Position numbers and translations under genes: made by a program
Notes under the pieces: generated by a model
Databases searched by the model: none
What the model was told of the DNA's origin: nothing
What the model saw: the letters and a program-made list of their open reading frames with translations, nothing else
DNA from: a virus
Lineage: Duplodnaviria; Heunggongvirae; Uroviricota; Caudoviricetes
Virus record (IMG/VR): IMGVR_UViG_2698536403_000004
Reading direction: 5' to 3' (one strand)
Length of the DNA: 6,450 bases
Part shown: one piece after another, positions 2,275 through 6,450 of the stretch
Numbering within the stretch: the first letter of the stretch is position 1
How the letters are laid out: each line of letters opens with the position of its first letter

Positions 2275-2694
2275 CTATGATGCGTTTTGTGCTTTCTTTT
2301 TACGGATTTCTTCGTAGATCATATTGTAATACTGTTTTTTCTCTTCAAGAGTTTTTAATAAGTTATCCGCTTCACTTTCTGGCAGTTCGTCTAAGAGATC
2401 TAAAAAAATACGTTGTCGTGGCGTTAGAACCCTTGTTTCATAACTGGAGGCTGTGTTCGTTGATGATGAAACGATACCATCCATCCATCCCCGGGGTAAC
2501 CCAAAGGACTCTTCGATAATCTCCACCATATCATCAGCGATCCGTTTTTTTCCCTTTTTCCCCTCTGGGTACAACATTCTTGATACATAAGAAGGCTCGC
2601 GCCCGATCTTTCTGGCCACGTTAACCGCTTTACCATCGCATTTCTCATCACGAATTTTGATGAGTTGCTGTCGTCTAAATTCATATTTGTCCAT
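2275..2694 (-). CDS. Prophage repressor, short HTH type (139 aa; CI/RacR-like role), no C-terminal peptidase domain
   Basis: Divergent from a Cro-like gene across an operator-rich spacer; HTH-like segment GKAVNVARKIGREPSYVSRMLY; length too short for an S24 peptidase domain. No SD upstream of the ATG and a TATTAT hexamer 5-10 nt upstream suggest a leaderless mRNA. Confidence 0.7.
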   Translation of the reverse strand: MDKYEFRRQQLIKIRDEKCDGKAVNVARKIGREPSYVSRMLYPEGKKGKKRIADDMVEIIEESFGLPRGWMDGIVSSSTNTASSYETRVLTPRQRIFLDLLDELPESEADNLLKTLEEKKQYYNMIYEEIRKKKAQNAS

Positions 2695-2794: not shown

Positions 2795-3076
2795 ATGGAA
2801 GAATTAAGAATATTTCTCAATTCTCTTTCGTCAGATGAACAGCGTATGTTTGCATGCGAGTGTGGTACCAGCATCGGTTATCTAAGAAAGGCATTGAGTA
2901 AAGGTCAAGTGTTAGGGGCATCGTTATGTGTCCTTATTGAGCGAGCCAGTAATGGTGAAGTTACACGTCAGCAACTAAGGCCTTTTGATTGGATGAATAT
3001 TTGGCCCGAGCTGGAAGATACCAAAACGTTAACACAACCACTTTCTAGGAGCTTGATTCATGAAAATCAAGCATGA
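2795..3076 (+). CDS. ydaS: Cro-like HTH regulator of the YdaS type (93 aa)
   Basis: AAGGAG 6 nt upstream of ATG; divergent from the repressor; protein pattern ...CGTSIGYLRKALSKGQ...IERASNGEVTRQQLRPFDW resembles the YdaS/Cro-like family as I remember it; not verified by search. Confidence 0.55.
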   Translation: MEELRIFLNSLSSDEQRMFACECGTSIGYLRKALSKGQVLGASLCVLIERASNGEVTRQQLRPFDWMNIWPELEDTKTLTQPLSRSLIHENQA

Positions 3077-3485
3077 ACACATCCGCATGGCGATGAATGC
3101 CTGGGCGCGTCCTGATGGCGAAAAAGTTCCAGCAGCTGGAATAACCCAGGCTTATTTTGAGTTGGGTATAACGTTTCCTGAACTGTATGACGACAGCCAT
3201 CCGGAAGCCCTGGCTCGCAATACACAGAAAATTTTCCGCTGGGTAGAGAAAGACACCCCTGATGCTGTTGAAAAAATTCAGGCGTTGTTACCAGCGATCG
3301 AAAAGGCAATGCCACCTTTGCTGGTGGCCCGAATGCGCAGCCACAGTTCAGCCTATTTTCGGGAGCTGGTGGAGACGCGGGAACGACTGGTGAGAGACGC
3401 TGATGATTTTGTCGCAGTGGCGATTGCCGGTTTCAATCAGATGAACCGTGGTGGCCCTGCAGGAAATGCCGTGGTGATGCACTAA
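3060..3485 (+). CDS. ydaT: YdaT-like protein (141 aa), in the cII-equivalent position
   Basis: AGGAG 8 nt upstream of ATG at 3060; overlaps the preceding gene by 17 nt; N-terminus MKIKHEHI matches my recollection of YdaT family proteins; follows the Cro-like gene as in Rac-type prophages. Confidence 0.5.
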   Translation: MKIKHEHIRMAMNAWARPDGEKVPAAGITQAYFELGITFPELYDDSHPEALARNTQKIFRWVEKDTPDAVEKIQALLPAIEKAMPPLLVARMRSHSSAYFRELVETRERLVRDADDFVAVAIAGFNQMNRGGPAGNAVVMH

Positions 3486-3719: not shown

Positions 3720-4115
3720 TTATGGCATCGGGAGGCCGTTTTTCTCCCGATATCGCTCGATCTCTGCCTGAATTGCTGCAACAGCACACATGGAGTCGTA
3801 CTGGATCAGTCTGAGATTTTCAATCGTGAATTTGTCTTCCTCCATCAGGTTGAGCATACGAAAGTATCGAAAGACGTAAACTTCTGGGCCGCTGACACCA
3901 TACCCCTTTGCCTTCGATATGGTTTGGTGGAGCTCCCATTCTTTCAATGCGAGGGTGAGAGCCATTTCTCTTATTTTTGCTCTGGCTTCAGCAGCCCGGC
4001 GTTGCGCTTCAATGGTTCGTTCCGATTTGCGTTGCCAGGCACCATTAACCAGCGAAACCACGCCAGCAACACACGCACTCAACACAACGCTACTTGTGAT
4101 AGTTGCAAAATCCAT
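3720..4115 (-). CDS. Membrane-anchored protein (131 aa): N-terminal TM helix followed by a basic, helical cytoplasmic domain; moron-like, function unknown
   Basis: ATG at 4115 with GAGGAGG 6 nt upstream; TATAAT (complement of 4155..4160) upstream on the minus strand; product MDFATITSSVVLSACVAGVVSLVNGAWQRKSERTIEAQRRAAEARAK...; positive residues after the TM place the C-domain in the cytoplasm. Confidence 0.65.
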   Translation of the reverse strand: MDFATITSSVVLSACVAGVVSLVNGAWQRKSERTIEAQRRAAEARAKIREMALTLALKEWELHQTISKAKGYGVSGPEVYVFRYFRMLNLMEEDKFTIENLRLIQYDSMCAVAAIQAEIERYREKNGLPMP

Positions 4116-4194
4116 TTCGAACCTCCTCTGGTTCTGTTGATTAGTGAATCACAGATTATAACCAGAGGAAGGTTTGGCTCCAGACGAGGTGAAC
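4116..4194. promoter_or_regulatory. Divergent promoter/RBS region between the moron and the replication gene, with an imperfect inverted repeat (4121..4133 vs 4160..4173)
   Basis: Minus strand: TATAAT then GAGGAGG then ATG. Plus strand: possible TGTTGA -35 and TATAAC -10, then GAGG 5 nt before ATG 4195. CCTCTGGT / ACCAGAGG form an exact 8-bp inverted repeat. Confidence 0.4.
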
Positions 4195-5280
4195 ATGCGT
4201 GATTATGCAAAAGTTTCCCCGCGATTCTGGCTGGGAGAAACGGGGAGAGAACTTAGAAAGGCGGGTGCAGAAGCGCAAGTTGTTGCTTTTTACCTGATGA
4301 CATCCCCTCACGCAAATATGTTGGGTTTGTATTACCTGCCAGTTTTGTACCTTGCTCATGAAACCGGGCTTGGTCCGGAAGGGGCTTCGAAGGGGCTTAA
4401 AAGGGCTGTTGAAGCTGGTTTTTGTAGCTATGACCATGATGCCGAGATGGTCTGGGTCCATGAAATGGCAGCCTGGCAGGTTGGGGAAACGTTGAAGCCT
4501 GGAGATAACCGTTGTGCAGGTGTCAGGAATGAGTATGCATCATTACCTGAAAACGCCTTTCTGTCAGCCTTTTACGACAGATATAAAACGGATTTCCATC
4601 TGGATGTGAGGCGGAATAATCGCCGGAATTCAGCAAGGGGCTTCGAAGAGGCTTTAAAGGGGCTTCTAAGCCAAGAACAGGAACAGGAGAAAGAACAGGA
4701 GCAGGATAAAAATACTATGCTTCATGGCGAAAAAATCGCCACGAACCAGGCAGGGGATGTTCAGAACGTCAATCCTGGTCAGCCAGCAGGCACGACACCG
4801 GAAGCCGATTCGGGCGCTGTGCAGCAGGCGATGACCGCAAGGCCGGAACAATCACACCAACTGCAGCAGCCTGAAGCCGATTCCGCCATTCAGCGGGAAG
4901 CCGATCAGGTAGTCCCGGAAAACACCGGGCAGCCTGTGGGACGAGTGGATTATCCGGATGTGTTCGAACAGGTCTGGCGGGAATACCCGTTGCGTGCCGG
5001 AGCAAACCCGAAGAAATCCGCTTTCAGTGCCTGGAAGGCCAGATTACGCGAGGGGGTGCCACCAGAGGCCATGCTGGATGGCGTGAGGCGTTACGCAAGA
5101 TACCTGGCGACTACCGGGAAAACGGGAACGGAATTTGTTCAGCGAGCGACGACGTTTTTTGGACCGGACCGGAATTTTGAAAACCCCTGGTTGCTCCCGG
5201 TAAGCGGCACGAACAACCAGCGTTGTGTGAATCATGTTTCTGAACCGGATACCGAAATTCCGCCAGGCTTCAGGGGGTAA
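4195..5280 (+). CDS. Putative replication initiation / replisome-organiser-type protein (361 aa; YdaU/O-position analogue), with a low-complexity acidic Q/E-rich linker
   Basis: ATG at 4195 with GAGG 5 nt upstream (in-frame TTG at 4174 is an alternative); sits where O-type genes lie; C-terminal segment DYPDVFEQVWREYPLRAGANPKKSAFSAWKARL...FFGPDRNFENPW resembles conserved phage replication-protein C-terminal domains as I remember them; unverified. Confidence 0.55.
   Translation: MRDYAKVSPRFWLGETGRELRKAGAEAQVVAFYLMTSPHANMLGLYYLPVLYLAHETGLGPEGASKGLKRAVEAGFCSYDHDAEMVWVHEMAAWQVGETLKPGDNRCAGVRNEYASLPENAFLSAFYDRYKTDFHLDVRRNNRRNSARGFEEALKGLLSQEQEQEKEQEQDKNTMLHGEKIATNQAGDVQNVNPGQPAGTTPEADSGAVQQAMTARPEQSHQLQQPEADSAIQREADQVVPENTGQPVGRVDYPDVFEQVWREYPLRAGANPKKSAFSAWKARLREGVPPEAMLDGVRRYARYLATTGKTGTEFVQRATTFFGPDRNFENPWLLPVSGTNNQRCVNHVSEPDTEIPPGFRG
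4379..4666. repeat. Short direct repeats inside the replication gene: AAGGGGCTT at 4379, 4390, 4635 and 4657, including an exact 14-mer AAGGGGCTTCGAAG at 4379..4392 and 4635..4648
   Basis: Read directly; two pairs about 250 bp apart; further repeats GAACAGGA x3 (4675..4700) and GAAGCCGAT x3 (about 4801, 4874, 4898) lie in the linker. Confidence 0.6.
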
Positions 5281-5320
5281 GTGTTTATTTCAGGTCATGA
5301 GGTAATTTTCAGGAGGGCTT

Positions 5321-5746
5321 GTGGCAAAAGTTTTTACACAAGAAGAGCGAGAAAAAATTAAAGGGCAGGTTGTTGAGCTAGTACGCCGGAGTGGGCGCGA
5401 GACGTTACGGCAACTGGAAGCCAAGACAGGTGCGACAAGATATCTGATGAGCGTTCTCGCCAGAGAGCTGGTTGCCAGTGGTGATGTATACAACTCTGGT
5501 TACGGGTTATTCCCGTCTGAACAGGCTCGTAAGGACTGGCAAAACGCCCGCAAAAAACTCTCAAGGGCAAAGCTGAAGAAAAAAACACCTGTGGTTGATC
5601 CGGACCTTATCTGGTCGTTACCAGACGGAGAAATACGTCGTTATGACAGGCGTCAGAACATAATCTGTAGCGAGTGCCGGAAGAGCGAAGTTATGCAGCG
5701 CGTGCTGGCGTTTTATCAGGGGAATTTTCAGGAGGTGGTGCTGTGA
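5321..5746 (+). CDS. Hypothetical protein (141 aa), possible winged-helix-like N-terminus
   Basis: GTG start at 5321 preceded by AGGAGGG (short 4-nt spacer); long ORF co-directional with the replication gene; product MAKVFTQEEREKIKGQVVELVRRSG... Confidence 0.5.
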   Translation: MAKVFTQEEREKIKGQVVELVRRSGRETLRQLEAKTGATRYLMSVLARELVASGDVYNSGYGLFPSEQARKDWQNARKKLSRAKLKKKTPVVDPDLIWSLPDGEIRRYDRRQNIICSECRKSEVMQRVLAFYQGNFQEVVL

Positions 5747-5803
5747 GTGAAATTAGCTATCAGGCTTCAATTGCCGCTGGCATTCGCATCAAAGGAGAGG
5801 AGC

Positions 5804-6160
5804 ATGGAAATAAAACCAGAAGATGAGTTAAGTAATATTGTTTTATTTCCGGTAAAAGAGGATGACCCACGTAATCAGGTTAATTTTCTTTATGAGCCAT
5901 CGGAAAGACCATATTGTCATCACGCCTCTGTCCGGGTTGACGAAAAAGAGCGTCAGGTCCGCTGTAAAATCTGCGGTGCAGTTGTGGAGCCATTTGACTG
6001 GATGCTCTCTGTGGCGAAAAGAGAAACCAGACTGGCAGATGATGTAAGGCTCTTGCGCCAGGAGGAACGGGAAAGGCGGAGAAATATAGAAAAGCTAATT
6101 CAGATTGAGCGTAACGCGAAAGCGCGGATACGCAGGGCGGCAAAATCAAGAACTGAATAA
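5804..6160 (+). CDS. Hypothetical protein (118 aa) with a possible zinc-ribbon (C-H-H...C-x2-C) and a basic coiled-coil C-terminus
   Basis: ATG at 5804 with AAGGAG 6 nt upstream (the track's GTG start at 5747 lacks an RBS); product MEIKPEDELS...YCHHASVRVDEKERQVRCKICG... Confidence 0.5.
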   Translation: MEIKPEDELSNIVLFPVKEDDPRNQVNFLYEPSERPYCHHASVRVDEKERQVRCKICGAVVEPFDWMLSVAKRETRLADDVRLLRQEERERRRNIEKLIQIERNAKARIRRAAKSRTE

Positions 6161-6245
6161 TTAAATTTAGCACTGTTAAAAATTTAATCCTTAACCGGAG
6201 GGATTTCTGCACCCTCAGAACATCAGGAGGCCGTTCGAAATGGCG

Positions 6246-6450
6246 GTAAGCGTGCAGCAAGAACCGTATTGACGGGGATGTGTTATTCAGTCGGCAGTGC
6301 TACGCGCCAGGGGAGCAGTTCGCCGACCCGGCGTTACGGTCGTCACGAACGTAGGTCCATAACCGCCCGGTCTTCGTTTTCTTATTGCCTGGCAACAGCA
6401 CCGGGACAGGCGTGTCATCAGCATGGAGCTTACCGTCAGTCAGCACATAG
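6246..6450 (-). mobile_element. IS66-family insertion sequence remnant: terminal GTAAGCG end at 6246 and an internally deleted transposase; continues past the window
   Basis: Minus-strand translation gives ...HADDTPVPVLLPGNKKTKTGRLWTYVRDDRNAGS, matching the middle of IS66-type transposases as I remember them, then jumps in another frame to a C-terminal-like tail ...ELLPWRVALPTE-stop; the plus strand carries GTAAGCGTGCAGCAAGAACCGTATTGACGG at 6246, consistent with the 5'-GTAA terminal repeat of this family. Confidence 0.55.
6283..6449 (-). pseudogene. IS66-family transposase fragment with a large internal deletion and frameshift (junction near 6315..6327)
   Basis: N-terminal/middle homology ends after RDDRNAGS (about 6324); the C-terminal tail is read in a different frame (6286..6327) and ends at the stop 6283..6285. 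Confidence 0.5.

Follow-up and report, generated by a model that had tools for sequence, protein, structure and literature searches.

The stretch of DNA analyzed here (6,450 nucleotides, hereafter the window) comes from a Rac-like lambdoid prophage of Escherichia coli, of which it covers the immunity and early region. Two small genes, which we call ORF1 and ORF2, follow the replication initiator gene (Rep) on the same strand and together span positions 5321 to 6160. The features of the window, with the domains and motifs of Rep, ORF1, and ORF2 that carry our argument, are listed below in window order.

Minus strand, first in window order: genes for DicB, DUF1482, and DUF1391
2275-2694, minus strand: RacR/DicA-like repressor
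2795-3076: YdaS-like Cro
3060-3485: YdaT-like CII
3720-4115, minus strand: moron with a match to PD-Lambda-6
4174-5280, plus strand: replication initiator (Rep), 368 aa; PHROG 1701 and PHROG 3729
5227-5277, plus strand: DnaT-type tail of Rep, its last 17 residues, VNHVSEPDTEIPPGFRG
5321-5746, plus strand: ORF1, 141 aa, DUF977/Ren family; GTG start; PF06163 and PHROG 142
5321-5578, plus strand: N-terminal winged-helix domain of ORF1 and the next helix, residues 1-86, as predicted by AF2 and Foldseek
5642-5716, plus strand: C-terminal motif of ORF1, YDR..N..C.EC..S..MQR.L.FY, residues 108-132, common to lambda Ren
5804-6160, plus strand: ORF2, 118 aa, zinc ribbon and basic helix; ATG start; PHROG 1621
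5915-5974, plus strand: predicted zinc ribbon of ORF2, C38-x-H40...C54-x2-C57
5990-6154, plus strand: long C-terminal helix of ORF2, residues 63-117, as predicted by AF2 (pLDDT 86-94)
About 100 bp past ORF2: truncated IS66 transposase fragment

Both small genes are present as an earlier sequence-only reading of this DNA had described them, with products of 141 and 118 aa, and the RefSeq gene calls in a 99%-identical prophage of E. coli HY220605 are the same as those in the window. ORF1 begins 40 nt after the Rep stop codon (5280), with an AGGAGG Shine-Dalgarno sequence 5 nt before its GTG start, and the ATG of ORF2 is preceded by a strong Shine-Dalgarno sequence of its own, GGAGAGGAG. An alternative GTG start at 5747 would lengthen ORF2 to 137 aa. 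This longer form is unlikely: every one of the 30 homologues in our alignment starts at a Met matching position 5804, RefSeq gives the 118-aa form in the 99%-identical prophage, and in other genera the equivalent of this Met overlaps the stop codon of the gene before. A search of positions 5000 to 6450 found neither promoter-like nor terminator-like sites, so separate transcription units are unsupported.

ORF1 belongs to a known prophage family. It scores 112.4 bits with the Pfam model PF06163 (DUF977; cut-off, 22.1), residues 1 to 137 covering positions 1 to 134 of the 134-position profile; among the PHROGs it matches 142, "Ren-like exclusion protein," best (E = 4.5e-48; profile positions 1 to 115 of 116); and a RefSeq protein 99% identical to it, WP_001151231.1, bears the name "DUF977 family protein." DUF977 occurs in ~3,900 of the 5,426 complete E. 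coli genomes. Searches with ORF1 gave no match in NCBIfam, none to the PADLOC defense HMMs at E ≤ 0.1, and nothing below E = 0.3 in a sequence search of the PDB. The literature indexed under "LygF," a RAST-style name for DUF977, consists of papers on fish lysozyme and of unrelated papers. K-12 YdaW was considered as a DUF977 protein and rejected, as it has no BLASTP similarity and belongs to PHROG 630.

The possible winged helix-turn-helix noted earlier at the N terminus of the 141-aa protein is borne out by structure prediction. The matches listed for ORF1 in a homologue search were near-identical E. coli proteins, and a Salmonella DUF977 query was used to add diversity for the structure model. 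The resulting AF2 model has helices at residues 7-24, 29-36, 40-53, and 67-86, with pLDDT values of 91 to 94 at residues 11 to 70, and all of its top Foldseek matches are winged helices (GntR, MarR, ArsR, CadC, and IclR) at probabilities of 0.96 to 1.0. Kinch et al. (2009; PMC2686095) likewise assigned DUF977 to the winged-helix fold. The C-terminal half is modeled with low AF2 confidence; it contains the family motif, in which Y108, R110, N113, C116, E118, C119, S122, M125, Q126, and R127 are invariant columns.

Lambda Ren (lambdap62) also finds its best PHROG in 142 (E = 1.6e-41; profile positions 11 to 110 of 116). BLASTP aligns the two proteins over 57 C-terminal residues at 33% identity (E = 2e-6), pairing ECRKSEVMQRVLAFY in the C-terminal motif of ORF1 with ECRQSAAMKRVLAVY in that of Ren, and leaves the N-terminal halves unaligned pairwise. 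As judged by these profile and pairwise comparisons, ORF1 is a homologue of lambda Ren, whose gene comes last in the O-P-ren block, where the nin region begins. Lambda ren is a nonessential, delayed-early gene that is cotranscribed with O and P from pR (PMC10695390; PMC3640518), and the literature ties it to Rex exclusion; a lambda preprint, which reports that Ren and the Rex proteins make contact in two-hybrid assays, describes Ren as "likely involved in DNA replication." ORF1 is a Ren/DUF977 winged-helix protein, encoded by the gene that usually ends a lambdoid replication block, and by homology to Ren its role would most likely be nonessential and either replication-associated or antiexclusion.

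ORF2 is a member of PHROG 1621 (no known function) at E = 7.5e-56, and its most distinctive feature is a candidate zinc ribbon. The C-H-H...C-x2-C pattern reported for it stands in four of its five positions: none of 30 homologues of 45 to 94% identity departs from C38, H40, C54, or C57, whereas H39, the other histidine of the reported pattern, is not conserved. 43 more distant relatives, at ~30% identity, keep C38, C54, and C57 without exception and H40 in at least 90% of cases. On this pattern of conservation, the zinc motif is real and lies far beyond chance. The AF2 model (mean pLDDT 76.6) places the predicted ligands on two short beta-hairpins, with strands at residues 43-46 and 51-54. 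Similarity to known ribbons is faint: the Pfam family Zn_Ribbon_TF (PF08271, TFIIB) scores 21.6 bits (E = 1.6e-4), below its gathering threshold of 29, and is matched at E ≤ 0.01 by only 4 of the 43 distant relatives, and the best Foldseek match is the TFIIB ribbon 1pft at E = 0.15. Pfam, NCBIfam, and PADLOC (E ≤ 0.1) assign ORF2 to no family, a PDB sequence search gave nothing below E = 0.3, and Foldseek against the PDB and BFVD gave nothing below E = 0.1, the matches being generic zinc knuckles and BIR domains. A Pfam scan of the 43 distant relatives returned nothing beyond sporadic coiled-coil and zinc-ribbon noise.

The helix that follows the ribbon is the most conserved part of the ORF2 family, with the consensus LRxEExxRRxNIEKLIQIERNAKARIRR and invariant residues spanning L84 to R110; E102, N104, and R108 are kept at 90% or more in the distant relatives. 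The "basic coiled-coil tail" attributed to this protein survives as a basic helix, in that K and R outnumber D and E by 13 to 6 in the last 36 residues, but the coiled coil itself is putative: the heptad hydrophobicity of the modeled helix is only moderate (best register, 0.62), and dimerization through it is likewise plausible. A DksA/TraR-like identity, which would also combine a coiled coil with a zinc finger, was dropped for want of a family match and because the two elements come in the opposite order. A bZIP-like reading of the segment ERNAKARIRR is speculation. From its charge, its zinc ribbon, and the conserved polar residues of its helix we infer, with low confidence, that ORF2 is a nucleic acid-binding accessory factor; its target would be nucleic acid, or perhaps RNA polymerase, it may dimerize through the helix, and it would have no connection to helicase loading.

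The distribution of ORF2 is that of a mobile small gene. Its close homologues form 148 clusters, all from the Enterobacterales, and a profile search extends these to a wider superfamily of 1,629 clusters at 50% identity, whose common features are NVxxFP near the N terminus, the CHCC ribbon, DPFD, and a helix in which E, N, K, and R residues are conserved. The homologues of Serratia, Yersinia, Klebsiella, Kluyvera, Erwinia, and Pantoea prophages come last or next to last among the nin genes, with NinG, NinH, RusA, or YbcO ahead of them and a small ORF and Q behind, and these phages carry O and P, O and a DnaC-like gene, or O and DnaB. Stx2a phages such as ArgO145 hold a 98%-identical copy amid ead/Ea22 genes, and Tritos and mEp460_ev081, in which Rep and DUF977 are followed by unrelated genes, have no ORF2 at all.

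A phage-encoded helicase loader is truly absent from this module. The sequence-only reading had seen no P- or DnaC-type gene downstream of Rep, and rightly so: the gap between Rep and ORF1 is the 40 nt given above, and tblastn searches of the window with E. coli DnaC, YdaV, phage DnaC-like proteins, lambda P, and phage DnaB found nothing. Neither ORF1 nor ORF2 matches the DnaC/IstB-type AAA+ loader families PF01695 and PF00308 at E ≤ 1, the lambda P-type loader family PF06992 in Pfam, or the DnaB and DciA-type families. This loader-less architecture is both common and functional. The contiguous junction between the 3' end of Rep and DUF977 is present in 1,533 of the 5,426 complete E. coli genomes (~28%) and recurs in phage-collection records, and in many genomes the similarity (~90 to 96% nucleotide identity) is confined to the part of Rep that encodes the tail, the spacer, and DUF977. 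In the complete 46-kb genome of Tritos, DUF977 comes directly after Rep; no loader is annotated, and tblastn with DnaC, YdaV, P, or DnaB detected no homologue. Tritos is a plaque-forming phage that was propagated on MG1655 hsdR- (PMC9928086).

To describe ORF1 and ORF2 as standing where a helicase loader is expected, as had been done, is nevertheless misleading, for the pair also lies downstream of DnaC-like loaders in many relatives. Among 80 IMG/VR loci that carry ORF2 at ≥97% identity, a DnaC-like gene lies upstream in at least 30, and in ~29 DUF977 comes right after Rep. Four E. coli/Shigella loci (L021 to L024) have a YdaU-type Rep, a DnaC-like gene, DUF977 (73 to 74% identical), and the zinc-ribbon gene (97% identical) in that order, and DUF977 keeps the same gene position in relatives, 3' of DnaC-like genes. 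The pair follows a loader in these loci, ORF2 is mobile and is dispensable for loader-less modules, and each gene occurs without the other; by this synteny, ORF1 and ORF2 are not loader substitutes. The synteny comparison with related prophages that had been proposed thus favors the accessory reading of the two genes over the loader-substitute one. Homology to a common nin-region protein, which the sequence-only reading had named as an outcome that would refute it, is present, for ORF1 is homologous to lambda Ren and the ORF2 family resides in the nin region in other genera. Very probably, then, ORF1 and ORF2 are accessory genes that act independently of each other, belong to the early-rightward (pR-type) operon of this Rac-like lambdoid prophage, and have no role as a loader.

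The alternatives can be ranked by how they fare against the same gene orders. It is improbable that the two genes form one system, for instance a DNA-binding regulator with its partner or an anti-defense or exclusion pair. They are adjacent and codirectional in most of the 80 IMG/VR loci, as they are in 971 of the 5,426 complete E. coli genomes, and some database proteins (P0039 and P0041) look like a DUF977 segment joined to ORF2; an ead/Ea22 gene often intervenes between them in those 80 loci, however, and PADLOC matches neither. DUF977 occurs without ORF2 in Tritos, mEp460_ev081, and 75/02 Stx, and ORF2 occurs without DUF977 in nin regions and in ArgO145, so the two are no obligate pair.

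We give still less credence to the view that ORF1, alone or with ORF2, is a noncanonical helicase loader or adaptor acting in place of P or DnaC. Its appeal is positional: the genes sit where P or DnaC would be, DUF977 lies directly 3' of Rep in every loader-less module examined, and the Rep tail and DUF977 travel jointly at the nucleotide level. Against this, DUF977, with or without ORF2, comes after DnaC-like loaders in the 30 or more loci counted above and after P in lambda, the loader-less Tritos is viable without ORF2, which is found elsewhere in nin and ead regions, and ORF1 is a small winged-helix protein without an ATPase, neither product matching any of the loader families searched. 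The same co-conservation of the Rep tail with DUF977, and the direct succession of the two in loader-less modules, make a replication-accessory role for ORF1 possible. Least probable of all is a decayed module in which a cryptic prophage lost a DnaC-like gene (and DUF1627) that once separated Rep from ORF1 and ORF2, as the gene order of relatives such as Shigella phage 75/02 Stx (Rep 70% identical to that of the window, then DnaC-like, DUF1627, and a Ren-like gene) and the IS66 fragment that interrupts the prophage just past ORF2 might suggest, for the direct junction recurs in the 1,533 genomes and the phage-collection records, plaque-forming Tritos has it with no loader, and Rep, ORF1, and ORF2 are all intact.

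Where, then, might the loader function come from? Of the two explanations offered earlier, accessory genes and a different set of replication partners, the first is supported, and the second may hold as well, but the evidence for it lies in the DnaT-like C terminus of the initiator and not in ORF1 or ORF2. In Rep, a linker rich in Q and E connects an N-terminal domain to a C-terminal domain that resembles DnaT. Its PHROG matches are 1701 (E = 1e-144), named "DnaD-like helicase loader," and 3729, named "replication initiation protein." A profile of the C-terminal domain aligns with residues 107 to 179 of E. coli DnaT at a hhalign probability of 95.9% (E = 6e-9), and the last 17 residues, VNHVSEPDTEIPPGFRG, are identical at 14 of 17 positions to the DnaT C terminus, VNTVSEPDSQIPPGFRG (PDB 9zbt_D, 2ru8, and 6aep), both ending in IPPGFRG; phmmer and BLASTP give this match E values of 1e-4 to 8e-8. 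Because the tail dominates the signal, homology of the helical-bundle part is less certain. The same tail is found on K-12 Rac YdaU and on five other phage initiators with unrelated N-terminal domains, and its bearers include the 75/02 Rep, a Salmonella Rep, Tritos/640R1, and mEp460_ev081; existing annotation calls such initiators "primosomal protein I." A literature search for the tail peptide "PPGFRG" found nothing.

A DnaC-type gene lies 3' of DnaT, of YdaU, and of the 75/02 Rep, and the Rep of the window is without one. Since the former three precede DnaC-type genes, the tail or the C-terminal domain may be what joins the initiator to PriA or to a loader-helicase complex of the DnaC type. 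It has been proposed that the N-terminal domain of DnaT may recruit DnaB/DnaC while its C-terminal domain docks PriA and filaments on single-stranded DNA. The absence of a loader probably reflects the host-DnaT-like end of Rep, and this resemblance suggests that the initiator would engage the host DnaB-DnaC or PriA primosome machinery, presumably through its DnaT-like C-terminal domain and tail. A more specific proposal is possible, if rather unlikely: the tail (...VS.PD..IPPGFRG) would be a peptide that captures a host or phage DnaC-type loader-helicase complex, which would explain the loader-less modules of ~28% of E. coli genomes and of Tritos; the same tail on DnaT would link the restart preprimosome to DnaB-DnaC; and the coinherited Ren/DUF977 protein could be a third component.

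ORF1 and ORF2 are ordinary, already annotated prophage genes, near-identical copies of which are entered in thousands of genomes as "DUF977 family protein" or "Ren-like exclusion protein" and, for ORF2, as "hypothetical protein." The useful outcome of their analysis is a negative one, namely, that they should not be taken as loader substitutes. A side result is the large superfamily of zinc-ribbon and helix proteins to which ORF2 belongs, with ~1,600 clusters at 50% identity and no Pfam model. The more interesting lead lies outside positions 5321 to 6160, in the DnaT-type tail on loader-less initiators. Recent papers still describe the recruitment of DnaB-DnaC by DnaT-like proteins as unknown, and that step could be probed through the tail, which recurs on phage initiators whose DNA-binding domains are unrelated, whether or not a DnaC-like gene lies next to them.

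Each of the three proteins can be set beside known systems. Rep resembles DnaT, YdaU, and DopC in its C-terminal part, the N-terminal domains being unrelated; DopC, which joins an O-like N terminus to a DnaT_C domain, was described earlier by Brezellec et al. (2017; PMC5509034). ORF1 belongs at full length to DUF977 (PF06163), whose members in Rac-, Qin-, and Stx-type prophages are annotated as "LygF" or "Ren-like exclusion protein"; the sole difference lies in the upstream neighbor, which is Rep itself or else a DnaC-like gene, alone or accompanied by DUF1627. With lambda Ren it has in common a predicted winged-helix N terminus, the C-terminal EC(R)xSxxMxRVLAxY, and a position directly 3' of the replication genes in the pR operon (O-P-ren in lambda; Rep-ORF1 here). 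ORF1 is longer, however, at 141 aa against the 96 aa of Ren, with an extra basic linker or insert at residues ~75 to 105; Ren falls short of the Pfam DUF977 model, and C116 of the DUF977 CxxC is not conserved in it. ORF2 occupies, outside Escherichia, a position like that of the small nonessential nin proteins (the neighbors of NinG, NinH, YbcO, and RusA), but it matches no named Nin family in Pfam and here lies directly 3' of the replication block. Its predicted ribbon is like those of the TFIIB/S27e type in having two knuckles, four predicted metal ligands, and beta-hairpins, and unlike them in using C-H-C-C ligands rather than C4 and in being followed by a helix of ~55 residues.

The replication initiator gene (Rep) of this prophage is a mosaic. 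Its linker and C-terminal domain are ~90% identical in phages 640R1 and Tritos (loci L002 and L020), the N-terminal domain of Rep in these two phages is completely different from that of the window, and nucleotide homology to them begins at ~4705 in the window (Rep codon ~178). This position is a recombination joint at a domain boundary within the initiator gene. The features discussed here are as follows, in window coordinates.

3720-4115, minus strand: PD-Lambda-6 gene, 131 aa, matched by PADLOC
4363-4405 and 4630-4672: two repeat clusters within the Rep gene, in its N-terminal half
5227-5277: DnaT-like tail of 17 residues, at the end of the Rep gene (4174-5280)
5301-5316 and 5720-5735: 16-nt element GG(T/G)AATTTTCAGGAGG
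6300-6446, minus strand: truncated IS66-family transposase fragment (Pfam DDE_Tnp_IS66)

Of the 17 residues in the tail of Rep, 14 match the C terminus of Escherichia coli DnaT. This tail is shared by K-12 YdaU and several phage initiators, the N-terminal domains of which are unrelated. It is present on initiators both with and without an adjacent DnaC-like gene and may be a portable peptide that recruits the loader, the helicase, or PriA. Just beyond the Rep gene, one copy of the 16-nt element, which contains a Shine-Dalgarno sequence, precedes the start of the DUF977/Ren-family gene (ORF1), and another lies close to the end of that gene. This element possibly marks a mosaic junction or recombination boundary; alternatively, its recurrence may be due to chance.

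A profile of homologues of the zinc-ribbon and basic-helix gene (ORF2) retrieved 1629 clusters at 50% identity, 257 of them at E<=1e-10. These are small proteins (divergent superfamily alignment A2, proteins P0241-P0373) that have in common the motifs NVxxFP and DPFD, a CHCC ribbon, and an ExNxKxR helix. No Pfam model covers this superfamily, which is a large uncurated family. At three related Salmonella loci (L007-L009), the DUF977 gene ends at 3778 and the ORF2 homologue starts at 6001, leaving a gap of ~2.2 kb for which the stored gene table lists no called genes. Homology between the window and related prophages stops at ~6208-6249, and the IS66 fragment beyond it matches DDE_Tnp_IS66 over profile positions 65-101 of 284 (E=4e-9); the prophage is therefore interrupted just 3' of ORF2.

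Upstream of Rep, the 131-aa gene is inserted between the cII-like and replication genes and gives a full-length match to PADLOC PD-Lambda-6 (E=9e-90). It is a predicted anti-phage defence moron, located within the early-right operon on the opposite strand. Within the Rep gene itself, the repeats are spaced at 11 nt, resemble GAAGGGGCTTC / GAAGGGGCTTA, and form clusters 256 bp apart; they are candidate origin iterons. The ori of lambda is situated within O, and the placement of these candidate iterons inside the initiator gene resembles that arrangement.
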